A DNA stretch of 64,000 bases from Chloroflexia bacterium (GTDB lineage Bacteria; Chloroflexota; Chloroflexia; QHBQ01; JADMIH01): NCBI GenBank assembly GCA_035474135.1, contig DATINP010000044.1:4295-68294 (forward strand). The letters run 5' to 3'. Both the position numbers and the translations under genes were made by a program. The notes beneath the pieces are model-generated. The model ran no database searches and was not told where the DNA came from. It saw nothing but the letters and a program-made list of their open reading frames with translations. This document shows positions 2,017 to 61,475 of the stretch, one piece after another. Position 1 is the stretch's first letter, and each line of letters begins with the position of its first letter.

Positions 2017-3326
2017 TGGGCGCAACAGGAACGTCAAAGACGATGGTGATACAGGGCGGGAGAGAAAACCTTGTGGGAAGAGTCGAGGTGCCAGGCGACA
2101 AGTCAATCTCGCACCGGGCGACGATGCTGGGGGCGCTGGGCGAGGGTACAACGCGCATACGGAACTTCCTGCCCGCCAGCGACTGCCTGAGCACACTGGA
2201 AGTAGTGCGCGGGTTGGGAGTCGAAGTGGTGTATAGCCAGGACGAGGTGCTGGTGCGTGGGCTAGGGCTGAAGGGCTGGCGCCAACCCACGAGGTCGCTG
2301 GAGTGCGGCGGGTCGGGCACGACTATGCGTCTCATGGCGGGCCTACTGGCGGGATTGCCGTTGTACAGCATACTGGCTGGCAATACCCAATTGAGCCGTA
2401 GACCGATGGATAGGGTAGCTGTGCCCCTGCGGCAGATGGGCGCAACCATCCTCGGCGATGATGACGGCAAGTACCCGCCGTTGTCCATTCTCGGAGGCGA
2501 CCTGAGAGCGATCCGGTACGAGATGCCCATCGCCAGTGCGCAGGTGAAGTCTGCTGTTCTGCTGGCAGGACTGTTCGCGCAGGGGGTCACTTCGGTGGTA
2601 GAAGCGGCTGTCACGCGCGACCACACCGAGAGGATGCTGACCGCAATGGGCGTGCGAGTAGAGAGTGAGGCCGGCATGGTTCAGGTGCACCCGTCGCCGC
2701 ATTTGGAACCTCTGGACCTGCGCGTACCGGCGGACATGTCGTCGGCGGCGTTTCTGCTGGCAATAGCAGCAGTGGTGCCCGGTTCGCGTGTGATGGTGCC
2801 GGGCGTGGGCATTAACCCGGGCCGGGTGGGCATCTTGCACGTTCTGCGGAAGATGGGAGCCGAGGTGTGCCTTCACAACCAGCGTGTCGATGCAGGCGAA
2901 CCTGTGGCCGATATCGAGGTGAGGTATGGCACTCTCAGGGGCATTTCGATAGGGGCGGAGGACGTGCCCACAATGATAGACGAGTTGCCCGTGTTGGCGG
3001 TGATTGCGACCCAGGCCGAAGGGGTGACCGAGGTGCGGGGGGCAGCCGAATTGCGGGTAAAGGAGACCGACAGGATAGCTACCACGGTATCCGAACTGAG
3101 GCGCATGGGAGCGCGTATCGAAGCTCTGGAAGATGGGTTCGTGGTGGAAGGGCCAACGAGACTACACGGGGCACACGTCGAGAGTCACGACGACCACCGG
3201 CTTGCTATGTCGCTGGCGGTGGCGGCACTGGCGGCGAGCGGTGAAACGACGATAGAGGGCGCAGCTTGCCTTAGCGACAGCTTCCCGGGCTTTGAAGAGC
3301 AAGTTGCACAACTCATCGGTTATTGA
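2016..3326 (+). CDS. aroA: 3-phosphoshikimate 1-carboxyvinyltransferase (EPSP synthase)
   Basis: KSISHR, LGALGEGTT, GNTQLSRRPMDR, LAVIATQAEG motifs; ATG overlaps tyrA TGA (ATGA coupling); ORF-track start at 1974 is upstream of the likely start. Confidence 0.9.
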   Translation: MGATGTSKTMVIQGGRENLVGRVEVPGDKSISHRATMLGALGEGTTRIRNFLPASDCLSTLEVVRGLGVEVVYSQDEVLVRGLGLKGWRQPTRSLECGGSGTTMRLMAGLLAGLPLYSILAGNTQLSRRPMDRVAVPLRQMGATILGDDDGKYPPLSILGGDLRAIRYEMPIASAQVKSAVLLAGLFAQGVTSVVEAAVTRDHTERMLTAMGVRVESEAGMVQVHPSPHLEPLDLRVPADMSSAAFLLAIAAVVPGSRVMVPGVGINPGRVGILHVLRKMGAEVCLHNQRVDAGEPVADIEVRYGTLRGISIGAEDVPTMIDELPVLAVIATQAEGVTEVRGAAELRVKETDRIATTVSELRRMGARIEALEDGFVVEGPTRLHGAHVESHDDHRLAMSLAVAALAASGETTIEGAACLSDSFPGFEEQVAQLIGY

Positions 3327-3375
3327 GACGTGAAACGCAAAGATCGCAGAGAGCGCAAAGTTTTAAGAGGTCGGG

Positions 3376-3393
3376 TTTTTGTCGCGACAAAAA
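3376..3393. repeat. TTTTTGTCGCGACAAAAA perfect palindrome (copy 2)
   Basis: 18-bp perfect palindrome between aroA and aroE. Confidence 0.85.
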
Positions 3394-3394
3394 A

Positions 3395-3438
3395 GACGTA
3401 TGACGCATGACGCATGACGCATGACGCATGACGTATGA
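3395..3438. repeat. (GACGYAT)6 tandem heptamer array
   Basis: gacgtat gacgcat x4 gacgtat read directly. Confidence 0.9.
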
Positions 3439-3444
3439 GATACC

Positions 3445-4314
3445 ATGGCACCTGACGACCACCAAGACACATCAACTGTCACACATCACGTCGGCCTCAT
3501 CGGCTACCCCGTGGAGCACAGCCTGTCGCCCGCAATGCACAACGCAGCATTCACGCATTTGGGGTTGGAATACCGATATGTGCTATTGCCTACACCTCCT
3601 AGCGAGTTGGAGAGGCGCGTGAGAGAGTGCGTGGAGCGAGGGTTCGCGGGGTGGAACGTGACGGTACCCCACAAGGAGGGGATGGCACGAATGCTTGACG
3701 AGATGAGCGACGAGGTGAAGGCAACCGGCGCGTGCAACACTGTGCTGGTGGAGGGTGGCAAACTGCAGGGCTTCAATACTGACACAATAGGGTTTATACG
3801 AGGGCTAGAGGAAGCGGGCGGTATCTCGGCAGGCTCGAAGGCGGTCGTGCTGGGCGCAGGCGGGGCGGCGCGCGGCGTGGCGTGGGCATTGAGGCAAGCC
3901 GGGCACCGGGTGATTATTTTGTCGCGGAAGCCGGAGCAAGCGCGAGAGGTCGCCGAGGCTATAGGGGTAGAAGCCGGTCTGCTTGATGCGGAAACGCTAG
4001 AGGGCGAACTTGAAGTGGCGCAGCTACTCGTGAACTGCACGCCCGCGGGTATGTGGCCTCATGTGGAGGAGAGTCCTGTGCCGGACGGTGCGCGGATACC
4101 GGCAAACATGCTGGTGTACGACCTGGTGTACAGGCCAAGGCCGACATTGATGCTGCGGAAGGCGGCGGAGGCGGGCTGCCGTACGCAGAATGGGCTGGCG
4201 ATGCTGGTGTACCAGGGAGCAGCAGCGTTCGAAATATGGACGGGCCGTCCTGCCCCAATAGAGATGATGAGAAGGGCGTGCGTCAGGGGCGAGGGATTAG
4301 GGGTTAGGGGTTAG
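3445..4314 (+). CDS. aroE: shikimate dehydrogenase
   Basis: GLIGYPVEHSLSP, NVTVPHK, NTDTIGF, GAGGAARG motifs; C-terminal residues GLGVRG are encoded by the GGGGTTA heptamer repeat. Confidence 0.85.
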   Translation: MAPDDHQDTSTVTHHVGLIGYPVEHSLSPAMHNAAFTHLGLEYRYVLLPTPPSELERRVRECVERGFAGWNVTVPHKEGMARMLDEMSDEVKATGACNTVLVEGGKLQGFNTDTIGFIRGLEEAGGISAGSKAVVLGAGGAARGVAWALRQAGHRVIILSRKPEQAREVAEAIGVEAGLLDAETLEGELEVAQLLVNCTPAGMWPHVEESPVPDGARIPANMLVYDLVYRPRPTLMLRKAAEAGCRTQNGLAMLVYQGAAAFEIWTGRPAPIEMMRRACVRGEGLGVRG

Positions 4315-4368
4315 TAAGACGTCGTAAAACGCATAACTTCTAACACCTGACCCCTCACCCCTAACACC
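4287..4368. repeat. GGGGTTA-based composite inverted repeat
   Basis: ggggcgagggattaggggttaggggttag ... ctaacacctgacccctcacccctaacacc; left arm encodes the AroE C-terminus. Confidence 0.75.
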
Positions 4369-4389
4369 TACAGGAAGGATAACGCAACA

Positions 4390-5529
4390 ATGATACACAG
4401 GTTTCTTACGGGCGGAGAGTCACACGGGCCGGGGCTAACCACGATAGTGGAGGGGTTCCCGGCGGGGCTGGCATTGGACGTGGAGGCGATCAACCACGAG
4501 TTGACCCGTCGCCAAGGGGGCTATGGACGCAGCGGGCGCCAGCATATCGAGCGTGACGAGGTGCAGTTCTGGGGCGGAGTGGAGAATGGCGTCACCACAG
4601 GCGGGCCAATCGTCATGCAGATCGCCAACCGCGACTACGCCAACTTCATCAAGAAGGAGCACCCACGCCTCACCGCGCCACGGCCAGGCCACGCAGATCT
4701 CGTGGGGGCCATCAAGTATGGCTACAGCGACATGAGGACGGCGCTTGAACGCTCAAGCGCGCGGGAGACGGCGGCTCGAACAGCGACGGGCGCCCTCGCC
4801 AAGCAGTTGCTGGGGCAGTTCGGGGTGAAGGTGGGCAGTGTCGTCACAGAGATCGGGGGCGAACAGGCCGACGTGGACCTGTCGTCCCCGGAGTCGCTCC
4901 TGGAGGCCACAGAAGCCTCGCCCGTGCGGTGTCCTGATACGGAGGCCACGGAGCGAATGAAAGCGCGCATAGACTACGCCAGGCGCACCGGTGACACGTT
5001 GGGTGGGGTGTTCGTGGTGTGGGCGACAGGGCTTCCAATAGGGTTGGGAAGCTATGTGCACTGGGACCGCCGCCTCGACGGTCTGCTCGCGTGGGCGGTG
5101 ATGAGTATCCAGGCGATCAAGGGGGTGGAGATCGGCGAAGGCTTCGAGAACGCCCGCATGAACGGGCGGGACGTGCACGACCAGATTTATGTCGGCGAGC
5201 GGGGGTTGGAGAGGCACACGAACCGTGCGGGTGGGCTGGAAGGCGGCGTGACTAATGGGCAGCCGCTGATCGTGCGTGCCGCGATGAAGCCGATCTCTAC
5301 TACGATCAACCCGTTGCAGACGGTGGACGTGGCAACGGGCGAGGCGGCCAGCACGCAGTACCAGCGCTCGGACTTCTGCGCCGTGCCCGCAGCGGGCGTA
5401 GTGGGCGAGGCAATGGTGGCGTGGATACTGGCCGACGTGCTGCACGAGAAGCTGGGCGGCGACAGCCTGAGTGAGATGCGCGCACGGACGACGGACGACG
5501 GACGACCGACGACGGGCAGTGCCCGGTGA
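4390..5529 (+). CDS. aroC: chorismate synthase
   Basis: GESHGPGL, RRQGGYGRSGRQ, RPGHADL, SARETAART signatures; C-terminal TTDDGRPTTG is encoded by the left arm of a GGACGAC hairpin element. Confidence 0.9.
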   Translation: MIHRFLTGGESHGPGLTTIVEGFPAGLALDVEAINHELTRRQGGYGRSGRQHIERDEVQFWGGVENGVTTGGPIVMQIANRDYANFIKKEHPRLTAPRPGHADLVGAIKYGYSDMRTALERSSARETAARTATGALAKQLLGQFGVKVGSVVTEIGGEQADVDLSSPESLLEATEASPVRCPDTEATERMKARIDYARRTGDTLGGVFVVWATGLPIGLGSYVHWDRRLDGLLAWAVMSIQAIKGVEIGEGFENARMNGRDVHDQIYVGERGLERHTNRAGGLEGGVTNGQPLIVRAAMKPISTTINPLQTVDVATGEAASTQYQRSDFCAVPAAGVVGEAMVAWILADVLHEKLGGDSLSEMRARTTDDGRPTTGSAR

Positions 5530-5559
5530 CCAGCAGGCGTCGTCCGTCGTCCGTCGTCC
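5484..5559. repeat. (GGACGAC)n / (GTCGTCC)n hairpin element spanning the aroC-aroK junction
   Basis: Left arm acggacgacggacgacggacgaccgacgacgg, 22-nt loop, right arm cgtcgtccgtcgtccgtcgtcc. Confidence 0.85.
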
Positions 5560-6086
5560 GTCGTCCTACCAGGAATCTGGTGCTGGTAGGATTTATGGGC
5601 ACTGGCAAGACTACTGTGGGCGCGCTTGTGGCCGAGCGGCTGGGGTGGTCGTTCGTGGATACGGACGCACTGGTCAAGGTAGCGACGGGGATGTCCGTAG
5701 CCGAGATCTTCGCGACGCAAGGAGAGGTCGCGTTCCGAGCGCTGGAGAGAGAGGCGTGCCGGGAGGCAAGCGCACGCCAACACGTCGTTATAAGCGTGGG
5801 AGGCGGAGCCGTGATGGACCCGGAGAACAGGCGTGCGCTTGAAGCGAGCGGGATGCTTGTGCTGTTGACGTGCGAGCGCGACAGGCTGATCGAGCGATTG
5901 GAGGAGTCTGTGCGCCGAGGCGAGCGGCCCCTGCTTACCGGCGACATTGGGAAACGTATAGACACACTCGCCGCGAGCCGGGCGCAGGTGTATGGGTCAA
6001 TCGCGATGAAGGTGGACACTACGAGGCTGACGCCGGAAGAGGTTGTAGAGATTTTGGTCAGGGATTGTAACCCTTTACTCTCGTAA
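5526..6086 (+). CDS. aroK: shikimate kinase
   Basis: Walker A GFMGTGKTT and shikimate-kinase core; GTG start overlaps aroC stop; N-terminal [11 protein letters not shown] is encoded by the right arm of the hairpin element, so the true start is uncertain. Confidence 0.8.
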   Translation: MTSRRRPSSVVRRPTRNLVLVGFMGTGKTTVGALVAERLGWSFVDTDALVKVATGMSVAEIFATQGEVAFRALEREACREASARQHVVISVGGGAVMDPENRRALEASGMLVLLTCERDRLIERLEESVRRGERPLLTGDIGKRIDTLAASRAQVYGSIAMKVDTTRLTPEEVVEILVRDCNPLLS

Positions 6087-6097
6087 AAGGAAGCATT

Positions 6098-7234
6098 ATG
6101 CAGGACATACAAGCCGACACTATTCGAGTGCAGACGCTCGATGGAGGGTACGATATCGTGCTGGGGAACGGATTGCTTGAAAGTGTGGGAAGGCTGGCGA
6201 GCAAGTTGGGGCTGGGCCGGAGGGTGGTGGTCGCCAGCGACACAAATGTGGCTCCTCTGTATGCCGAGCGAGCTATCCAGCCGCTGAAAGGCGCTGGTTT
6301 CGACGCTACACTGGCGGTTATGCCTGCTGGCGAGAAGCATAAGCGGTGGCCGTCGGTCGAGATGTTCGTGGAGTCCTTTCTGGACGCTGGCCTCGACCGG
6401 GGAGGTTGGGTGGCGGCGCTGGGCGGGGGCGTGGTGGGCGACACTGCCGGGTTCGCCGCATCTGTCTACATGCGCGGGGTGGACTTTGTACAACTGCCAA
6501 CCAGCCTGCTGGCTATGGCCGATTCGAGCATCGGGGGCAAAGTGGGCGTGGACCACGAGCGTGGCAAGAACCTGCTTGGCGCGTTCAAACAGCCCCGACT
6601 GGTGGTGGCCGACCTGGACGTGCTGGCGACCCTGCCACAGAAAGAGGTCGCGTGCGGCATGGCCGAGGTGATCAAGGCAGAGGTGATAGGGGGAATTGAC
6701 GACGGACGACGGACGACAGACGACAGCAATCGACTAACGTCCTCGGTCGTCCGTCGTCCGTCGTCCGTCGTCTCTCCTACGATCTACGACTCGCTGCGCC
6801 GGGCTATCGAAGTGAAGCGAGGGATCGTGGAGCGCGACCCGCACGAGGCGGGGGAGAGGGCGCTGCTGAACCTGGGTCATACGTTCGGGCACGCTTTCGA
6901 GAAATGCACAGGGTATAATAGGCCTCACGGCTACGCGGTGGCGCAGGGGATGGTAGTGGCGTGCAGGCTGGCGGCGGCGCTCGGTATGTGCGACGAGGGG
7001 TTGGCTGAGAGCGTTGAGCGCGCGCTCGCAGCGTGGGACCTGCCCATCAGGTGGGGTGCGCCCGATCTTGAGGACGAGGGTGCTGTGGAGCGCGTGTGGG
7101 AGGCGATGAGGCTGGACAAGAAGCGCGTGGACGGGAGATTACGCTTGGTTTTGCCGGAGGCAATTGGCAGGGTGTGCATTGTTGACGATGCGCCCGAAGT
7201 TGTTATCAAGAGGGTATTGAGGGAGACGAAGTGA
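6098..7234 (+). CDS. aroB: 3-dehydroquinate synthase (carries an in-frame palindromic-repeat insertion)
   Basis: DHQS motifs [27 protein letters not shown]; residues DDGRRTTDD...[11 protein letters not shown] (nt 6698-6772) are encoded by a perfect heptamer hairpin element. Confidence 0.85.
6698..6772. repeat. (GGACGAC)n / (GTCGTCC)n perfect hairpin element inside aroB
   Basis: gacgacggacgacggacgacagacgac - 21-nt loop - gtcgtccgtcgtccgtcgtccgtcgtc; 75 nt, a multiple of 3. Confidence 0.9.
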
Positions 7235-7235
7235 A

Positions 7236-7703
7236 ATGGAGCTGAAGGACGACCGGAACGGGCGCACGAGGCTGCTGGTGCTGCACGGGCCGAACCTCAA
7301 TCTACTCGGGCTACGCGAACCGCACATCTACGGCACGCTGAGCCTGCCCGAAATAAACAGCGCGCTGAAGGAACAGGCAGCAGAAAATAAAGTGGAATTG
7401 CGGATTGTGCAGTCGAACCACGAGGGCGCGCTGATTGACGAGATACACTCGGCCAGAGATTGGGCAGCGGGGATATTGATCAACGCGGGCGCGTACACGC
7501 ACACCAGCTATGCCCTGCGCGATGCGATCTCGGCGGTGGGCCTACCCACGGTGGAGGTGCACCTGTCGAACATTTACGCGCGTGAGGAGTTCCGGCATCA
7601 CTCAGTGCTGGCAGCGGTGTGCAATGGGCAGATTTCGGGCTTCGGACAGGACAGCTACCTGCTGGGGTTGCAGGCGTTGTTAGGTGTAATTGACAGGCAA
7701 TAG
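7236..7703 (+). CDS. aroQ: 3-dehydroquinate dehydratase, type II
   Basis: [20 protein letters not shown] and [14 protein letters not shown] signatures. Confidence 0.9.
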
Positions 7704-7715
7704 GAGCTTCCCCGC

Positions 7716-8552
7716 TCAGAACGAGGTACGCACAGCGCGAATGAGGTTTATTGGAGAGGCGTGGGGTGTCGCTATCAGGTGAGCAAGTGCGCCGGCGTGC
7801 TCATCAATGCGGCGCATCACATCCGCTTCATCGTCTTCGCACGTACAGCCGACCAGGTCGAGACAGTGAGCCCAGGCAGATTCGCGCGCTCTGTCCACCA
7901 TCAAGCAGGAGAACTCCTCATCCCACTGACCGAAAATCTCGTCGAGAAATCGGAGGGCGGGAGAATAGAGGCGCTCCACATGCTCCTGTAGTGTGTTGGC
8001 AGTACGCTTGAGCACCTCGTTTACGCCTGTATGGTCGTCGTAGCGCATGGGACGATCCGGATCAATCCCGGAGCGCATGAGAGCGATTGCCAGGTCGTGG
8101 TTGATATGAGCATTGACGCCGAGCAGGAGATGTTGTATTGCCAGCCCCTCACCATTCGCGCTTAACTCAAATGCAACCCGCCAGGCAGTCGGCACGTGCT
8201 CCAGGTCTCCCCGCTCGAAGGCTCGGAAAGCCTCCATATAGAGTTGTGCAAAATTCACAAGATAGCTTTGCACCCATGGGCCGTCCCTGAACTCACCTGC
8301 CTCTATAGCCTCGTCCATAGCCGACGTGATCGTCAGATAAGCCCCAACAAATATTGCCCGCCGGTCATTCGCGGCTCGGAGTTCCTCTTCAAGAGCAGTA
8401 AAACCGGCTCGTGCCGCAGCCGGTGTGGAGTAGTCGCCGTCCATGTGGAAGGTGATACGCACCGTGCCGTCGGCGCCTGAAAGCAGGGGCTGATCCATAT
8501 CACCCATAGTGCTACTGTCGTCCTCGATTGGGAACTCAACAGAGTGGTTCAT
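7716..8552 (-). CDS. hypothetical protein (possibly DUF5995-like)
   Basis: 278-aa ORF convergent with aroQ; conserved-looking LLGVNAHINHDL stretch; function unknown. Confidence 0.4.
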   Translation of the reverse strand: MNHSVEFPIEDDSSTMGDMDQPLLSGADGTVRITFHMDGDYSTPAAARAGFTALEEELRAANDRRAIFVGAYLTITSAMDEAIEAGEFRDGPWVQSYLVNFAQLYMEAFRAFERGDLEHVPTAWRVAFELSANGEGLAIQHLLLGVNAHINHDLAIALMRSGIDPDRPMRYDDHTGVNEVLKRTANTLQEHVERLYSPALRFLDEIFGQWDEEFSCLMVDRARESAWAHCLDLVGCTCEDDEADVMRRIDEHAGALAHLIATPHASPINLIRAVRTSF

Positions 8553-17058: not shown

Positions 17059-18762
17059 CTATGTGATCTTCGGTACTGAGCGGCGCAGACACGCGAAGAA
17101 GTAGGCCATTTTATTCGTCAGGCCTATCGCGCCGTGCTTGCCCTGTCCTTCGCGCGTGGTACGCTTCGCAGTGTACATGAGGTCCACGAACGCCTCGGCT
17201 TGCAGCCCCGACGTGCGCCATAACCGCATTGCTTGGCCTACATTTTCCAGCACGTGATCAGCATCTCCCAGTTCGTATGAGAAGTCTGCAACTACCCTCG
17301 AGATAAAGGGCGAATAGGCCGGGTCGCGAGCTTCTCCGGGTTCGTTCCCAGAAGCCTTTTTGACCAAGTTATGACTCGAGTCAGCCTTCATAATTTGTTC
17401 TGGATGATCTGCTTCTATTTCGTGTTCACCGCGCGTCACCGGGGGCTGTGCACTGCCTGTCATGGGACGCGGTGTCTTCCGCTTTACAGGGGCTAGCAAC
17501 TGCGCGTCACCTGGGCGTGCATACTGTACGTCGTTGGGGCCTGTCAACTGTGCGTCACTACCCACCTTATACTGTACGTCACTGGTGGCAATAAACTGGG
17601 TGTCACCGGGAAGAGGATACTGTATGTCACCAGGGGGTGTATACTGCGCGTCACCGGGATGCGCATACCCGCCGTCACGACCCATTGTATGTATCTGTGC
17701 GCCTGCACGGTCGCGTCGAGCCTGTGCCGCGAGGCTGCCGCGACGGGCTTTCTTGACTGGAAGGGTCGTGCTTGCTTCCTGCAAAGCTCCTGCTGTAGCG
17801 TCGGCTTCTGTGTCGTCTCCGGTTGGGGTTTGTCCGTTCTTCCCCGGTTTGAGCAGGTTGCGGATCTCGTCCAAGAGGGGGCTGAAGTCGTAGGCGTTCG
17901 AGTCTTGCCCGCCGTCGCTCTTGGTGCGGCGTACCAGCCGAAGCGAGCCGCGCTCGACCAGTCCCGTCTTGATGCGGTGCAGATAGGCGGCTGTGTAACC
18001 CGTCTGCAAGGCCATACGCACTATGCTGGGATAGGGCAGGGATGTGTCCCACTGGTATGAGAAAATGTAGGCCACGAACCACACCTGCTGTGGGGTCATG
18101 TCCAGTTCTTTACTGTATGTAAACAGGGCGCGTGGCACCGCTGCCACTCCGTAGCGGGTCAGTACCCTGCCGTAGCGGGCCACAAAGCTTGGGTCGTGCT
18201 GGGCGCGCTCGATCTCTTCGATGCCGCGCTCGTACCCGTTCTCATGCCCGTTGCGTTGGGGGAAATCTGGGACGCGTGTGGGGTCGTAAATCGAGCTTAT
18301 GGGATTGCTGTTGATCCTGCTTTTGACGTGCTCGGTAATGCACGATTCGAGCCTCTCGAACAGGGCGGCGAAGTCGTAGTAGTTCGACTCTTGCCCGCGC
18401 TCCTGCGACCTCCTGGGCAGGACCAGCAGGTAGCCCATGCCCTGTAGCTCGTCGCTGTATCGTTGTAACTGCCTCTTGCTCATGCCCGATGCGCGGGACA
18501 TCACGCCCAGGCTGGGGTAGGGGAGGTCTTCGTCCCATTTATGTGACAGGATGTAGGAGATGAACCATACATGCTGGGCGTAGAGGTCGAGCTTACCACC
18601 GAAGTGGTACAGCGCCGACGGCAGGGCCGCGATCCCGTGTTGCAGGATCACTCTGCCGAAACGCGCCGCGAAGCTATTGCCTGTCCCGGCAAAGGTGCCC
18701 GGGTTGACCTCTATATCGCCGTTTTGTCCTACCCTGCCCCTCTGTTCTATATTTTTGGGCAT
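17059..18762 (-). CDS. putative replication-initiator-like DNA-binding protein with tandem winged-helix domains and an octapeptide repeat
   Basis: Two roughly 110-aa paralogous domains (ARFGRVILQHGIAALP... and ARYGRVLTRYGVAAVP..., each ending SN.YDF); 8 x (xGDxQYxx) repeat; GGAGG RBS 8 nt upstream of ATG at 18762. Confidence 0.45.
   Translation of the reverse strand: MPKNIEQRGRVGQNGDIEVNPGTFAGTGNSFAARFGRVILQHGIAALPSALYHFGGKLDLYAQHVWFISYILSHKWDEDLPYPSLGVMSRASGMSKRQLQRYSDELQGMGYLLVLPRRSQERGQESNYYDFAALFERLESCITEHVKSRINSNPISSIYDPTRVPDFPQRNGHENGYERGIEEIERAQHDPSFVARYGRVLTRYGVAAVPRALFTYSKELDMTPQQVWFVAYIFSYQWDTSLPYPSIVRMALQTGYTAAYLHRIKTGLVERGSLRLVRRTKSDGGQDSNAYDFSPLLDEIRNLLKPGKNGQTPTGDDTEADATAGALQEASTTLPVKKARRGSLAAQARRDRAGAQIHTMGRDGGYAHPGDAQYTPPGDIQYPLPGDTQFIATSDVQYKVGSDAQLTGPNDVQYARPGDAQLLAPVKRKTPRPMTGSAQPPVTRGEHEIEADHPEQIMKADSSHNLVKKASGNEPGEARDPAYSPFISRVVADFSYELGDADHVLENVGQAMRLWRTSGLQAEAFVDLMYTAKRTTREGQGKHGAIGLTNKMAYFFACLRRSVPKIT
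17487..17680. repeat. 8 x 24-bp tandem repeat inside the Rep-like gene (iteron-like; encodes xGDxQYxx)
   Basis: Each unit ends ACTG(Y)(R)(Y)GTCAC with exact 24-bp period (GTCAC ends at 17510, 17534, ... 17678). Confidence 0.8.
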
Positions 18763-18781
18763 AGAAAACCTCCTGTACCCC

Positions 18782-18810
18782 TTGACAGGAGGATGGCCCG
18801 GTGCTACAAT
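18782..18810 (+). promoter_or_regulatory. consensus sigma70-type promoter (TTGACA-17-TACAAT)
   Basis: TTGACA 18782-18787, 17-nt spacer, TACAAT 18805-18810; points away from the Rep-like gene. Confidence 0.55.
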
Positions 18811-18816
18811 GCTTTT

Positions 18817-18909
18817 GAGCATACATTGTGCCGGTGATCCTCCTCCCAAGAGGGCCACACCGACGGAATCTTCAAAGCCTGACTGTTACCAGCAGTCGGG
18901 TTTTTATTT
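18817..18909 (+). ncRNA. putative small RNA of about 90 nt (promoter plus terminator defined), divergent from the Rep-like gene
   Basis: Consensus promoter at 18782-18810 and an 8-bp-stem hairpin followed by TTTTTATTT at 18878-18909; no ORF in between. Confidence 0.4.
18878..18909 (+). terminator. rho-independent terminator
   Basis: CCTGACTG/CAGTCGGG stem (one G-U pair), 7-nt loop, then TTTTTATTT. Confidence 0.6.
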
Positions 18910-20045: not shown

Positions 20046-21494
20046 ATGACTTACGATCCACGACTCCCCATGACTATCGTGGGCGCGGGGCCGAACGGGC
20101 TGGCTGCCGCCATCACGCTGGCTCGCGCCGGGCGGCAGGTGCTGGTGGTCGAGGCCAACCATGACATTGGTGGTGGCGTACGCTCGTCTGAACTGACCTT
20201 GCCCGGATTCGTGCACGACGTATGCTCGGCCATCCATCCTCTCGGCGTGGCCTCTCCCTTCTTCCGCGCCCAGCCTCTACAGAACTTCGGCTTGGAGTGG
20301 ATACAGCCTCCCGCCTGTATGGCGCACCCCCTGGACGACGGCACCGCAGTCATGCTCTACCGCTCGATAGGCAAGACGGCCAGGGGACTGGGGGGTGACG
20401 GCACGGCCTACCGCAGGCTGATATCGCCCATCGTGCGCAACTGGCGAGGGATCGAGCGATACGTGCTGGGTCCCTTCCGTCTACCGTTGCGTCTGGACCG
20501 GCTACTGGCGCTCGCGTGGTTCGGTGTGTGCGCGTTGCCGCCCACCCGCCTGGTGGCCTCTATTGCCTTCAGGGGCGAGAAGGCACGTGCGCTATGGGCG
20601 GGCTGTGCCGCGCACTCGATGCTGCCTCCCGACCGCCTCGCCAGTTCAGCCGCCGCTACTCTGCTCACCACTCTGGCTCATGTCGCGGGGTGGCCTATGG
20701 CGCGGGGAGGGTCGCAGCAGATCGCCAACTCGATGTCGGCCTACCTGCGTAGTATGGGGGGCGAGATTCGGACCGATACGCGCATTGACAGTATGAGCGA
20801 CTTGCCCGCGTCGGAGGCTGTGCTGTTCGATGTTAGTCCGCAGCAGTTATTAGGAATAGCGGGCGATGCCCTGCCGGATCGCTACAGGCGGCAGTTGAAG
20901 AAGTATCGGTATGGACCGGGCGTGTTCAAGATAGACTACGCGCTGAACGGCCCGGTGCCCTGGCGCGCCGAGGAGTGCAAGCAGGCGGGTACGCTCCACC
21001 TGGGGGGCACGTTCGAGGAGATCGCGCACAGCGAGAGCCAGGTGGGTAGAGGTATTCCCGCCGACCGCCCCTTCGTGCTGGCCGCGCAACAGAGCCTGTT
21101 CGACCCCACGCGCGCCCCGGCAGGCAAGCATACCTTCTGGGCCTACTGCCACGTGCCCAACGGCTCGACATTCGACATGACCGAGCGCATCGAGGCCCAG
21201 ATCGAGCGGTTCGCGCCCGGCTTCCGCGAGCGTGTGCTGGCCCGACACATTACCACGCCCGCCCAATTCGAGGCGCATGACGCGAACTACATCGGCGGCG
21301 ACATCAACGGCGGCATACAGGACATCCGCCAGCTTTTCACGCGTCCCGTGCCGTCGCTGAACCCTTACAGGACGCCCGCGCCCGGCATCTATATTTGCTC
21401 GGCGTCCACCCCTCCCGGCGGCGGCGTACATGGCATGTGCGGCCTCCACGCGGCTCGCGTGGCGCTACGCGAGCATAGATCTACGACTCGCTGA
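20046..21494 (+). CDS. NAD(P)/FAD-dependent oxidoreductase, phytoene-desaturase (CrtI)-like amine-oxidase family
   Basis: N-terminal dinucleotide-binding motif IVGAGPNGLAAAITLARAG and CrtI-like length and architecture. Confidence 0.65.
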   Translation: MTYDPRLPMTIVGAGPNGLAAAITLARAGRQVLVVEANHDIGGGVRSSELTLPGFVHDVCSAIHPLGVASPFFRAQPLQNFGLEWIQPPACMAHPLDDGTAVMLYRSIGKTARGLGGDGTAYRRLISPIVRNWRGIERYVLGPFRLPLRLDRLLALAWFGVCALPPTRLVASIAFRGEKARALWAGCAAHSMLPPDRLASSAAATLLTTLAHVAGWPMARGGSQQIANSMSAYLRSMGGEIRTDTRIDSMSDLPASEAVLFDVSPQQLLGIAGDALPDRYRRQLKKYRYGPGVFKIDYALNGPVPWRAEECKQAGTLHLGGTFEEIAHSESQVGRGIPADRPFVLAAQQSLFDPTRAPAGKHTFWAYCHVPNGSTFDMTERIEAQIERFAPGFRERVLARHITTPAQFEAHDANYIGGDINGGIQDIRQLFTRPVPSLNPYRTPAPGIYICSASTPPGGGVHGMCGLHAARVALREHRSTTR

Positions 21495-25401: not shown

Positions 25402-25495
25402 GGAGTTCTGAGTTTTGAGTTCTGAGGGATTAGGGGTTAGTGATTCGTTATGCGTGGTCGGTCGTCGGTCGTCGGTCGTCCTCCTAACCCCTACG
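25402..25495. repeat. composite heptamer element: (GAGTTCT)3 + (GGGGTTA)2 + (GGTCGTC)3-4 + CCTAACCCCTAC
   Basis: Read directly between the cupin and Mo-subunit genes. Confidence 0.8.
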
Positions 25496-27733
25496 TCACG
25501 TGAGTTGTTCCCCTGAAGTGGCCCTGGGGAGGGGCATCTCGCGCATCACGTCCAGGGTGAGGGGAGTGCCTTCGGGGGCTAGCTCTACCTGTACTGCGCA
25601 CACCTTGTATTCCGGTATACGGCTCAGTGGGTCGAATGCGCGGATCGTTAGCTGGTTGGCTGACTGCTTGCCGCCCCAGTGATAGGGGATGAAGACGGTG
25701 TCGGGGCGAATGGCGCGGGTGATCTTGCCCGGCACCACTATCTCGCCACGGCGGCTGCGCACGCGCACGGGGTCGCCGGCCTTGATGCCGAGCTTCTTCG
25801 CCGTCAGAGGGTGAAGCTCCACGTACGGCTCAGGCGCGTTCTCTACCAGCGTACCGATGCGCCGCGTCTGGTTGCCGCTCAGGTAGTGGAAGATCAGGCG
25901 TCCGGTCGTGTAGAAGAAGGGGTACTCCTCGTCGGGCACCTCGGCGGGGGGCTTGTAGGGCAGGGCGTGGAAGACAGCTTTGCCGTCGGGGTGGTAGAAG
26001 CGGTCCTCGAACAGGCGCGGGGTGCCTTTGCTCTCCAGTGTAGGGCAAGGCCAGAATACGCCGTCCTGCTCGTCTATCTTCTCGTAGGTAATGCCGTAGT
26101 AATCAGCCTTGCCCCCCTTTGAGGCCAACCGAAGCTCGTCCCAGATATCGCGGGCCGACTTGTAGGGGAACTGCTCGGCGTGGCCCAGGCGAGCCGCCAA
26201 GTCGCAGATGATCTCCCAGTCTACTCGCGCCTCGCCGGGAGGATCGGAGGCCTTATTGATCTTGATCACGCGCCCCTCGACGTTGGTGGTTGTGCCTTCA
26301 TCCTCGGCCCACACGCTGCCCGGCAGTACGATGTCGGCCAACTGCGCGCTCTCCGACATAAAGAAGTCGATCACAGCATACATATCGAGCGACAACAGTG
26401 CCTTCTTGATCGTGCCGATGTCGGGCAGAGACACCATGGGGTTACTGCAGATCTGCAACATGGCGCGGATCTCGCCCTTAAGGATAATGCCTATCTGGTC
26501 GGTGATGGCGTAGCCTGCCGGGGGGAAGTCTTCGGGCTTGAGACCCCAGATGCCGCCCACGTACTCACGCGCTTCGGGGTCGTCGTACTTGCGCTGGCCG
26601 GGCAGTTGGTCGGCCTTCTGGCCGTGTTCGCGTCCTCCCTGCCCGTTGCCCTGTCCCGTGAGCGTGCCGTAGCCGCAACCCGGCCTGCCGATGCGCCCAC
26701 TCGCGAGCACCATGTTGATATAGGAGAGGACGTTGTTCACTCCGTTGGTCGAGTGCTCAATGCCACGGGCGTGCATAAGGAAGCTGGTTTTGGCAGTGCC
26801 CCAAAGCTCAGCGGCCTCCTCGATACGCGCCGCCGGGATGCCGCACAGCACGGCCACCTTCGCGGGGGTGTACGCGCTCACCAGCGCGGCTAGTTCGTCG
26901 AAGCCGTTGGTGCGCGTGTTGATAAAGTCGTGGTCCAGCCAGTCGTGCTTCACCATCTCGTGTACGATGGCGTTGCCGAGGGCCGTGTCGGTGCCGGGCC
27001 TGATCTGGAGGTGTATGTCGGCTGTGCGGGCCGCGGGGGTCACTCGCGGGTCTACCATGATCAGTTTGCCGCCGCGGTCACGCGCTTCCCAGATGTAGGG
27101 CATGGTGAGTGGGTGGCACTCTGCCGTGTTGGTGCCCGCGGCGAAGATCACCTCGGCCAGCGCAATGTCGCTCCAGGGGTTGGCGGCGCGGTCCACACCG
27201 AAAGCCTTGTTGTTACCATAGGCTGCGCTCACCATGCACAGCCGCCCATTATAGTCCACGTTGCCCGTTCCCACCGCCACGCGAGCAAACTTGCCCATCA
27301 GGTAGGTCTTCTCGGTGGTAAGCGAGCTTCCTGAGTAGATGCTCACCGCGTTCTGGCCATACTTGGCGCGGGTCTCGCGGAAACTGCGTGCTATGGCGTC
27401 CAGAGCCTCGTCCCAGGTACAGCGTTCGAGTGGACTGTTCTTACCGCCCTTGCGCATCATGGGGTAGGTGAGGCGCTGAGGGTGGTTGACCTGCTGGTAA
27501 GCGGTGACCCCTTTGGGACACATCCGTCCCTTGTTTACCGGGAAGTCGCGCGCCTCAACCCCGAACACCTTTCCTTCGGCATCCACCTTCAGGTACATGC
27601 CACATTGCATCCCGCAGTAGGAACAATGGGTGGGCACCAACCTGATGCTTTCCGTGGTGCTCCACTCGGCAGTAGGCGCGTCGTACACCGACGTCAATTC
27701 GCCTTCGTCGGTTCTCTTCATAACGTCAGTCAT
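25496..27733 (-). CDS. molybdopterin (Mo-bisPGD) oxidoreductase catalytic subunit, cytoplasmic NasA/NarB/Fdh-like
   Basis: N-terminal C-x2-C-x3-C-x27-C FeS motif (CSYCGMQCG...CPKG), MGD-binding domains, no Tat signal. Confidence 0.7.
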
Positions 27734-27744
27734 GTCAATACCTC

Positions 27745-27840
27745 AATTCTGAGTGCTGAGTGACCAGTGCGTCATACGTTGTCAGTCGTCGGTCGTCCCG
27801 ACTTACGATCTAAGATCTATGATCTAAGATCTTAGACTCC
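27745..27840. repeat. composite element: GAGTGCT/GAGTGAC, GTCGTCG units and (GATCTAA)-type palindromic array
   Basis: ctgagtgctgagtgaccagtgcgtcatacgttgtcagtcgtcggtcgtcccgacttacgatctaagatctatgatctaagatcttagac. Confidence 0.75.
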
Positions 27841-37052: not shown

Positions 37053-37075
37053 GGATCTTAGATCTTAGATCGTAA
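37050..37075. repeat. (GATCTTA)n palindromic array
   Basis: agggatcttagatcttagatcgtaag. Confidence 0.7.
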
Positions 37076-37088
37076 GTTGTGGTAAGAA

Positions 37089-51920: not shown

Positions 51921-52043
51921 GGGTGATCGGTGACCGGTGAGCGGTGACCAGGGACCAGTGACCAGTGACCAGTGACCAGGGTTAGTAGGACAACAGATGA
52001 CGTATCACGTATCACTACTGGCCACTGGTCACTGGTCACTCAC
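51921..52043. repeat. (GTGACCR)n / (TGGTCAC)n long hairpin element
   Basis: About 8 GTGACC-type heptamers at 51921-51979, 40-nt centre, (CTGGTCA)3 at 52019-52043. Confidence 0.85.
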
Positions 52044-61406: not shown

Positions 61407-61475
61407 GTGTGAGTGAGTCGTAGATCTTCGATCGCAGATCGTAAGTCATGAGTGATGAGTGGCGAGTGATACGCC
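61407..61475. repeat. composite: GAGTGAT-type units plus GATCT palindromic stretch
   Basis: gtgtgagtgagtcgtagatcttcgatcgcagatcgtaagtcatgagtgatgagtggcgagtgatacgcc. Confidence 0.65.

Follow-up and report, generated by a model that had tools for sequence, protein, structure and literature searches.

How can a hairpin built of seven-nucleotide repeats lie in frame inside an essential enzyme? This question is raised by the gene aroB, encoding 3-dehydroquinate synthase (DHQS), in a 64,000-nucleotide stretch of the genome of an uncultured Chloroflexia bacterium (assembly GCA_035474135.1, contig DATINP010000044.1, positions 4,295 to 68,294 of the forward strand), referred to below as the window. The original prediction, made from the sequence of the window, described a perfect hairpin at 6698–6772 within aroB, translated in frame, occupying a segment of surface-loop length and resembling the Rickettsia palindromic elements (RPE), which insert in frame into proteins. 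Analysis of the site and of its counterparts in related genomes favours a different origin: with a probability of about 0.6, the hairpin is a recent local product of slippage in heptamer arrays combined with template switching or conversion, and was filtered by selection on AroB.

Structure of the hairpin in aroB

The gene aroB occupies positions 6098–7234 (+ strand) and encodes a protein of 378 aa, the reading frame of which is unbroken across the element. Codon 201 starts at 6698, and the 75 nt of the element correspond to codons 201–225, i.e., 25 residues, in agreement with the predicted in-frame translation within a functional-looking DHQS. The element itself was confirmed at 6698–6772 as an inverted repeat of (GACGACG)n with the layout 27 nt/21 nt/27 nt, reading in full GACGACGGACGACGGACGACAGACGAC / AGCAATCGACTAACGTCCTCG / GTCGTCCGTCGTCCGTCGTCCGTCGTC. 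It had been called perfect, but 26 of the 27 arm positions are paired (96% complementarity according to the repeat finder), and the single mismatch is A·C on the mRNA strand and G·U on the antisense strand only. The folding energy of the mRNA strand is -60.9 kcal/mol (z = -7.8 against shuffled sequences) and that of the antisense strand is -65.4 kcal/mol; folding is equally stable on both strands, as expected of an origin at the DNA level.

The 5′ arm, GACGACGGACGACGGACGACAGACGAC (6698–6724, + strand), comprises 3.9 units of GACGACG, including one variant unit GACGACA, and encodes DDGRRTTDD. It is followed by the 21-nt loop (6725–6745, + strand), the first 14 nt of which are AGCAATCGACTAAC. 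The 27/21/27 register of the original prediction was reproduced, but the 3′ inverted array is longer than the paired arm: it extends over 6738–6772 (+ strand) and contains five (GTCGTCC) units, the first of which is degenerate, while the paired arm GTCGTCCGTCGTCCGTCGTCCGTCGTC corresponds to 6746–6772; the array encodes 11 residues. The repeat finder also reported a second register of the 3′ arm, 6739–6765, which leaves a loop of 14 nt. Tandem Repeats Finder (TRF) detected period-7 arrays at 6698–6724 (3.9 copies) and 6738–6772 (5.0 copies); both aroB arrays thus consist of head-to-tail 7-nt units in at least three copies, as do the long simple sequence repeats (LSSR) and short tandemly repeated repetitive sequences (STRR). 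With no more than one mismatch, the heptamer tandem pattern GACGACGGACGAC has 15 matches in the window against 0.18 expected. Immediately after the 3′ arm, starting as TCTCCTACGATCTACGAC, lies a remnant of a second array, (CTACGAT)n, characteristic of the clade (6773–6796, + strand), which encodes ..PTIYDSL.

The same site in related genomes

Relatives were graded by BLASTP and by alignment, and for eight of them the DNA was fetched and the segment extracted. The close clade was defined by AroB proteins 74–94% identical in the alignment and has ten members (the window, P0002–P0010, L009 and L010). Every AroB of this clade has a different repeat-like peptide at exactly the place of the element. 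The arrays at this site belong to three families, (GACGACS)n, (RCGTCAT)n and (CTACGAT)n, with one to five units in the ten relatives; all ten sequences are in frame, and the stretch AEVIKA..RAIEVK has a length of 36–60 aa. Relatives with identity of 68% or less have an ordinary segment in the alignment, GDPxLFxxIExxxPGxxDYxxALxRAIxVKR. In a scan of a genome collection with the AroB alignment, the matches listed (at least 80 loci) were generic DHQS with no close relative among them, and they served only as a negative control for the GACGAC tandem.

The shortest form was found in L004, where ATC GAC GAC GGG CGA CTT ACG ATT TAC GAC encodes GIDDGRLTIYD and holds the seeds of both arrays. The native-looking peptide LFELLEATDGR is retained in L006 and L010. 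In L005 and L009, four direct units of the GACGACC type are followed by GGAARGCAARCGACTTAC and then by (GATCTAC)n, with no inverted arm. Three 14-nt units of CGACTTACGATCTR are present in L003, and (GTCATRC)5, one inverted unit and (CTACGAT)3 follow one another in L001. The closest relative of the window AroB is P0002, with identity of 89% by BLASTP and 94% in the alignment. Its peptide EASYVIRHASCVTYDLRSTIYD corresponds to (RCGTCAT)n and then (CTACGAT)n translated cyclically. A metagenome scan with AroB did not recover the P0002 contig; the heptamers were deduced from the periodicity of the peptide only, and at this level P0002 appears to have a different heptamer and no GACGAC hairpin. Throughout the clade, the aroB site thus consists of stacked period-7 arrays, drawn from three or more unit families, which change much faster than the flanks (74–94% identical). 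Taken together, the relatives present this site at successive stages, from the seed through the direct array and the asymmetric hairpin to the full hairpin.

Comparison with the relatives indicates where the parts of the element come from. The 5′ arm begins at ATT GAC GAC GG (I-D-D-G), and because all clade members carry this seed, the arm is an expansion of the local seed. The loop sequence AGCAATCGACTAAC is identical at 12 of 14 nt (manual count) to the homologous spacer AGCAAGCGACTTAC, located in the syntenic position in L005, and the 21-nt loop has no other occurrence in the window even with three mismatches allowed. Among the parts of the element, only the 3′ inverted array at 6738–6772 is matched in none of the relatives. 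Just upstream, six codons are missing from both the window and P0002, with loss of the native helix residues DPVLF; the segment therefore partly replaces native structure and is not purely added. As to whether the segment is an insertion, a replacement or native, the alignment of orthologs thus points to partial replacement and local rebuild, the ordinary segment being present at identity of 68% or less. The element is thus neither native nor simply inserted; the gene itself supplied the loop and one of the arms. The proposal of an RPE-like insertion into a native loop was not borne out, since the relatives have a clade-wide stack of arrays, the 5′ arm and loop are local, and there is no target-site duplication.

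The window comes from a metagenome-assembled genome (MAG) and the exact protein is known from one contig only, so that an artefact of assembly or sequencing, for example from chimeric or fold-back reads, has to be considered. It is highly improbable: the frame and the downstream conservation are intact, independent assemblies and several other loci show this architecture too, and the 75-nt element is probably shorter than the reads.

Host gene and structure of the AroB protein

The aroB open reading frame (ORF) is similar to solved 3-dehydroquinate synthases (E = 5e-68; 5eks, 3okf), and the predicted fold of AroB matches DHQS structures with template modelling (TM) scores of 0.83–0.90 (Foldseek). 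An NCBI protein from a Chloroflexia MAG, P0001, is identical to the window AroB, and the Pfam domains DHQ_synthase and DHQS_C were found in it. Residues K148, N158, K193, K240, R254, N258, H261, H265, H277 and K341/K342 are invariant in alignments of 26 and 79 sequences; E190 is invariant in the former and at least 90% conserved in the latter. These positions correspond to A. nidulans K152, N162, E194, K197, K250, R264, N268, H271, H275, H287 and K356, i.e., the metal ligands and the phosphate or substrate contacts. Because the catalytic positions are conserved and all ten clade sequences are in frame despite the 7-nt units, aroB looks functional and under selection.

The AlphaFold2 model of the window AroB, obtained with the 79-sequence alignment, has a mean predicted local distance difference test score (pLDDT) of 93.5 and a predicted TM score (pTM) of 0.92. 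The lowest internal pLDDT values belong to the blocks 201–210 (65), 211–220 (74) and 221–230 (82), with values above 92 elsewhere. A tentative helix, 209–217, is modelled between the long helices 181–198 and 227–246. In the repeat-free P0012, modelled likewise, this place is taken by helix 201–209 (PALFSLIES), a short turn and helix 217–234, with pLDDT of 96–98. The segment varies in length among DHQS structures. According to the models, the repeat-coded peptide thus appears to take the place of a small peripheral helix-turn. The predicted position of the element between conserved DHQS segments was confirmed by the alignments, and its placement at a structurally permissive site agrees both with the pLDDT of 65–82 against more than 92 elsewhere and with the variable length of the segment; the modelling that had been proposed places it in what is predicted to be the least confident segment of AroB, a peripheral helix-loop.

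Heptamer arrays in the window and the absence of stop codons

The gene map, built with a codon-position GC filter, contains 62 genes and is 87.8% coding. In the window, 19 period-7 arrays of at least eight unit types were found, 17 of them outside the interiors of coding sequences (binomial P = 1.9e-11); the other two are the arms in aroB. The presence of several unit families per genome, mostly in non-coding DNA, is typical of LSSR and STRR repeats, as is the change in copy number between close relatives at an orthologous site, which was found at aroB. In non-coding DNA, identity at lag 7 is 0.294, against approximately 0.25 at lags 5, 6 and 8.

Since 7 and 3 share no factor, three successive heptamers already expose every reading phase of an array, and a unit containing a cyclic stop triplet therefore cannot span three copies inside an ORF. 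All six frames of GACGACG are free of stop codons; the unit reads (DDGRRTT)n and its complement (VVRRPSS)n, which allows both hairpin arms to be coding. GTCATRC and CTACGAT are stop-free in the sense orientation only, which fits the single inverted unit in L001 and the absence of an inverted partner for CTACGAT. On the sense strand, no ORF-internal array in the window or in the loci of six relatives contains a stop; although this must be so by logic, it accounts for which families occur. Stop-bearing arrays at the 3′ ends of genes supply the stop codon of aroE (window), aroQ (L002, L003 and L006) and aroA (L003). The gene aroB is a rare instance in which the outcome of this process has escaped the purging seen in other genes.

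Stop-bearing arrays of AGGGGTT, AGTGATG and AAGTGAT are located at 4292–4314 in the window, 4590–4614 in L002, 516–548 and 5178–5213 in L003 and 2638–2666 in L006, and the C-termini of AroE, AroQ and AroA are thus set by heptamer arrays.

The 7-nt unit is not a multiple of three, so that slippage by one unit shifts the frame. The aroB site could accordingly be a contingency (phase-variation) locus, at which one-unit changes switch aroB off and on and produce a reversible auxotrophy for aromatic amino acids. No frame of the arrays contains a stop codon, so the second arm could undo a shift in the first; in addition, the number of units clearly changes quickly between relatives. Nevertheless, this is very unlikely, since ten of ten sequences are in frame, aroB is a housekeeping biosynthetic gene whose switching has no obvious benefit, and the arrays are strongly excluded from other coding sequences.

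Ribosomes might also skip the hairpin in decoding, in the manner of the bypassing known from T4 gene 60 and the mitochondrial ‘byp’ elements, or the hairpin might be removed from the RNA: it is a stable hairpin within a coding sequence, and its 75 nt preserve the frame either way. Skipping would require neither stop-free units nor lengths divisible by three, whereas both rules hold throughout the clade, even where the arrays are direct and incapable of forming a hairpin. There is no stop codon after a take-off site, and skipping would yield an enzyme approximately 13 residues shorter over AEVIKA..RAIEVK than the consensus form of approximately 39 residues. Bypass elements interrupt the frame or contain a stop and have matched take-off and landing codons, whereas the ORF is open in all ten relatives; bypass or removal is therefore extremely improbable. 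An intein and an intron were rejected, as such features are absent and the segment is translated.

Other hairpins and arrays of the same family

The only other hairpin of the GACGACG unit in the window is located at the aroC/aroK junction (5484–5566, + strand), with arms at 5484–5515 and 5538–5566 and a loop unrelated to that in aroB. The GTGA overlap of the aroC stop and aroK start codons (5526–5529) sits in this loop. The 5′ arms in aroB and at aroC/aroK differ by one base (A in aroB, C at aroC/aroK), at the same unit junction; taken as its reverse complement, the 5′ arm at aroC/aroK matches the 3′ array in aroB at 30 of 31 positions, including the variant unit, one register over. The arms at the two loci thus appear to be copies of one another, while the whole elements are not. 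Because L003 carries the same GTGA aroC/aroK junction without any hairpin, both arms at this junction in the window are in-frame additions, to the tail of AroC (14 residues) and the N-terminus of AroK (16 residues).

The start of aroK in L003 and L005 reads GTG AAY CTG GTG. As the GTG of the relatives is AGG in the window, the start of aroK in the window is uncertain; candidates are 5526 and an in-frame GTG right before the P-loop, with AGGA ahead of it. The AroK–AroB ‘fusions’ annotated in relatives (P0006–P0009) are joined via translated GACGACS arrays, located at 1806–1877 in L005 (a complete hairpin), 3586–3613 in L003, 3531–3561 in L004 and 1056–1086 in L006; these fusions may be real or may be ORF-calling artefacts of the stop-free unit.

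Two further GACGACG hairpins of the same genome were found in the assembly GCA_035274425.1 (loci L094 and L095), with arms of approximately 5 and 14 units and of approximately 12 and 4 units. Their loops are unrelated and built of other heptamer mini-arrays; one hairpin lies between co-oriented genes and the other between divergent genes. The pattern of arm lengths fits growth arm by arm together with sequence exchange, rather than a mobile unit of fixed length, as far as these sequences indicate. The tiny annotated hypothetical proteins P0121 (L094, 2510–2692) and P0123 (L095, 2508–2668) are translated GACGACG hairpins. A search with an idealised translated-hairpin peptide listed 120 matches, all of them short ORFs of 37–97 aa, none with a Pfam domain; the search was insensitive to this question, AroB itself not being among the matches listed, and it does not indicate that many real proteins contain such hairpins in frame.

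The recurrence of a like architecture at gene junctions, in the same operon and elsewhere, together with the extreme stability of the stem, suggests that the aroB hairpin could be a functional cis-element acting as RNA, as a DNA cruciform or as a protein-binding site, for example an RNase III or decay site or a ribosome pause tuning aroB/aroQ, of the same class as the operon-junction hairpins. Arrays are kept at the aroB site across the clade, and in L094 the arm mismatches give G·U pairs on the strand of both neighbouring genes. In aroB, by contrast, the mismatch is A·C on the mRNA strand. Moreover, at the aroB site the full hairpin is present in the window only, P0002 having no GACGAC hairpin and the others direct arrays only, and one hairpin of the family lies between divergent genes, upstream of a likely promoter. 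The aroB hairpin has no T-tail, and the promoter and terminator scan revealed no promoter, terminator-like site or T-run at the element, the 3′ flank of which is TCTCCTACGATC. A scan of 3000–8500 against Rfam 15, at E values up to 1, gave no match above the gathering score, only miRNA-precursor look-alikes of 20–29 bits against gathering scores of 55–97. A function of the aroB hairpin itself is therefore rather unlikely; hairpins of this class as a whole may have one. An intrinsic terminator was rejected, as no T-run follows the GC-rich stem.

The original prediction also held that the same heptamer family populates the intergenic spaces. This is true of the GACGACS arrays at 5484–5566, 25453–25482 and 27785–27798, but roughly 12 other arrays use different heptamers. 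The intergenic array at 25453–25482 (+ strand) is (GTCGGTC)4 of the GACGACS family, nested within an inverted pair AGGGGTTAG/CTAACCCCT. At 27785–27836 (+ strand) lies an intergenic mosaic of GTCGTCGGTCGTCC followed by CGACTTACGATCT(AAGATCT)n, in which the same two heptamer families adjoin as at the aroB site. The intergenic spacers 25403–25500 and 27734–27836 consist over their whole length of different heptamer families that follow one another in 7-nt phase, among them AGATCTT, AGATCGT, AAGTCGG, GACGACC, GACAACG, TATGACG, CACTGGT and CACTCAG. The longest intergenic hairpin of the window, at 51930–52040, consists of (GTGACCA)7 and (ACTGGTC)3.4 with an (ACGTATC)2 mini-array in the loop (-57 kcal/mol); its unit resembles the cyanobacterial STRR2 unit TTGGTCA. 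A small palindrome, TTTTTGTCGCGACAAAAAA, is present upstream of aroE (approximately 3376–3394 in the window) and recurs upstream of aroK in L002, L005 and L006; it adjoins AT-rich GAATTCT/TAATTTT heptamers and may be a bidirectional terminator or operator. A tandem repeat with a period of 24 nt (17595–17668, approximately three copies, 70% matches) lies within the ORF 17059–18858 (- strand).

Origin of the hairpin

Under the local origin favoured here, the first step is one that the relatives show: tandem arrays grow and shrink in situ from the short coding seeds GACGACGG and CTTACGATCTACGAC. Expansion and contraction of the arrays would proceed via replication slippage. The variant positions common to different loci suggest sequence exchange among arrays of one unit, in the course of which template switching or ectopic conversion would have placed an inverted GACGACS copy 14–21 nt downstream, giving the hairpin. 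Selection on AroB purges variants that break the frame or bear a stop, leaving stop-free units and net lengths divisible by three, as are seen in all clade members. Judging by the models, the site is tolerant because of its location: it forms a helix-loop at the periphery, flanked by two long helices of the C-terminal domain, and the catalytic residues are elsewhere. In this case the aroB hairpin is most likely baggage, neutral to mildly costly and with no function of its own. In the mRNA, a stem of 27 bp would have a length sufficient for recognition by RNase III and could also delay ribosomes, which makes a mild cost plausible.

Several observations weigh against this origin. Slippage and template switching at aroB are deduced from sequence comparison. 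In the relatives, no pre-existing inverted seed (GTCGTC) is present where the 3′ arm lies, so a simple correction of a quasi-palindrome is not evident. The 16-nt string GATCTACGACTCGCTG of aroB (6781–6796) recurs at 21478–21493, across the stop codon of the ORF 20046–21494, and CGACTTACGATCT, present in aroB of the relatives, occurs exactly at 27799 and with one mismatch each at 37067 (- strand) and 61436 (- strand). A few heptamers recur across the genomes of the relatives as a small vocabulary; together with the shared strings, this hints at active dispersal beyond slippage. The G·U pairs of the A-variant 5′ arm in L094 could reflect selection at the RNA level at some loci, and the clade-wide persistence of arrays at the aroB site could reflect function instead of tolerance.

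GTCGTC arrays adjoin ACGATCT arrays both in aroB and at 27785–27836. The sequences CGACTTACGATCT and GATCTACGACTC lie next to start codons or gene ends (20047–20066; 27799–27811; 37067–37079, - strand; 61415–61448, - strand); like GATCTACGACTCGCTG, they are non-repeat strings found in exact or near-exact form at the aroB site as well, which suggests that junction sequences were dispersed between loci. Since slippage does not carry sequence from one locus to another, either ectopic exchange among arrays, by template switching or conversion, or a tiny and so far unrecognised mobile element would be needed.

The lineage might thus have an active, unrecognised mechanism that writes and disperses inverted heptamer arrays, drawing on a small shared vocabulary of units, with hairpins serving as cis-signals at gene junctions; this reading has a low probability. 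Candidates for the writing mechanism are template switching between arrays at a distance and a very small mobile element. If this were so, the aroC/aroK hairpin with GTGA in its loop would be an example of the cis-signal, and the aroB element and the translated AroK–AroB linkers would be spill-over.

A mobile element could also have acted at aroB directly, the hairpin being a copy of a small non-autonomous element, such as a miniature inverted-repeat transposable element (MITE), an RPE, a REPIN or an element similar to the cyanobacterial SDR, that targets heptamer arrays and was inserted in frame. The hairpin type is spread over several contigs of the genome, exact non-repeat strings of 13–16 nt are common to aroB and other loci, and the same heptamer families adjoin at different loci. 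Elhai et al. are said to have described in 2008 (Genome Res 18:1484) very small mobile repeats tied to heptamer arrays in Nostoc. Yet the copies have only the heptamer in common, their loops being unrelated and their arms ranging from approximately 4 to approximately 14 units; in aroB, both the loop and the 5′ arm have homologous sequence in the relatives themselves; and the flanks GGAATT|...|TCTCC show no target-site duplication. Insertion of such an element at aroB is therefore improbable. A MITE was rejected, since the flanks GGGGAATT and TCTCCTAC are not duplicated and the interior is homologous to the spacer of the host gene. As regards REP and REPIN sequences, arms of the aroB type are simple 7-nt arrays of variable length, whereas REP and REPIN are defined by a fixed, conserved REP sequence of 20–25 nt in inverted doublets together with a RAYT transposase gene in the genome.

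Comparison with known repeats

Heptanucleotide simple sequence repeats (SSR) are the most abundant class of long SSR in many bacteria and are attributed to polymerase slippage; known heptamers include those of cyanobacterial STRR, GGGAATC of Xanthomonas, GGGGAYT of Nostoc and TAACTGA of Beggiatoaceae, which are mostly intergenic, with rare ORF-internal copies in stop-free orientation (PMC4679880, PMC4692102). Similar to these, the arrays described here are tandem 7-nt units of several families per genome, located overwhelmingly between genes or at gene ends, with copy number that shifts between close relatives, occasional inverted arrangement and stop-free copies inside ORFs. They differ in being habitually paired as inverted repeats with stems of 20–30 bp, in that one inverted pair is translated inside a housekeeping enzyme, and in their lineage, Chloroflexia. 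As every defining feature tested is present, the arrays belong with the heptanucleotide SSR; what is new is that they are habitually paired in inverted orientation and that one hairpin is translated as part of an enzyme. A full-text literature search found no description of heptamer repeats in Chloroflexi.

The RPE are palindromic repeated DNA reportedly translated as part of essential proteins, in frame and where the fold permits it (Ogata et al. 2000; review, PMC10969869). The aroB element resembles them as palindromic DNA in frame at a permissive position. However, RPE are dispersed elements of 100–150 bp with a conserved consensus, inserted as units, whereas here only the 7-nt unit is common, the loop and one arm of the aroB element come from the host gene’s own sequence, and the arms vary independently. 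No full-length consensus is conserved among dispersed copies, the loop being unique in the window.

Template switching creates and perfects hairpins by a one-step inverted copy, gives near-perfect stems and can alter coding sequence (PMC8794818, PMC8604942, PMC7202029). It is the best-documented route to a one-step inverted copy. Unlike the described cases, which are short stems in rRNA or genes, the template at aroB would be a tandem array with degenerate register, the arms of which would then slip.

In Borg elements, fast-evolving tandem repeats inside ORFs give rise to low-complexity, low-confidence protein segments (PMC9879509). The arrays in aroB likewise give a low-confidence segment in the protein. 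The ORF-internal repeat units of Borgs reportedly have lengths divisible by three; the aroB unit, in contrast, has 7 nt, the frame is kept by net length only, and an inverted pair is present in addition.

Implications

A lineage of Chloroflexia is thus flagged in which intergenic DNA consists largely of period-7 arrays, and these arrays can serve as a comparison point for the unexplained STRR repeats of cyanobacteria. In practice they mislead annotation: small ORFs are called spuriously, start codons become doubtful, and AroK and AroB appear fused. Within this lineage, the aroB site is a natural series for the study of slippage, template switching and the birth of protein segments. If an active writing mechanism does exist, it would be a live system in which non-triplet repeats and palindromes make new protein segments. 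At aroB, a non-triplet repeat, and even a complete 27-bp palindrome, can enter an essential enzyme, for which it is apparently sufficient that the unit is stop-free in all frames, that the net length is divisible by three and that the site is a permissive surface helix-loop.

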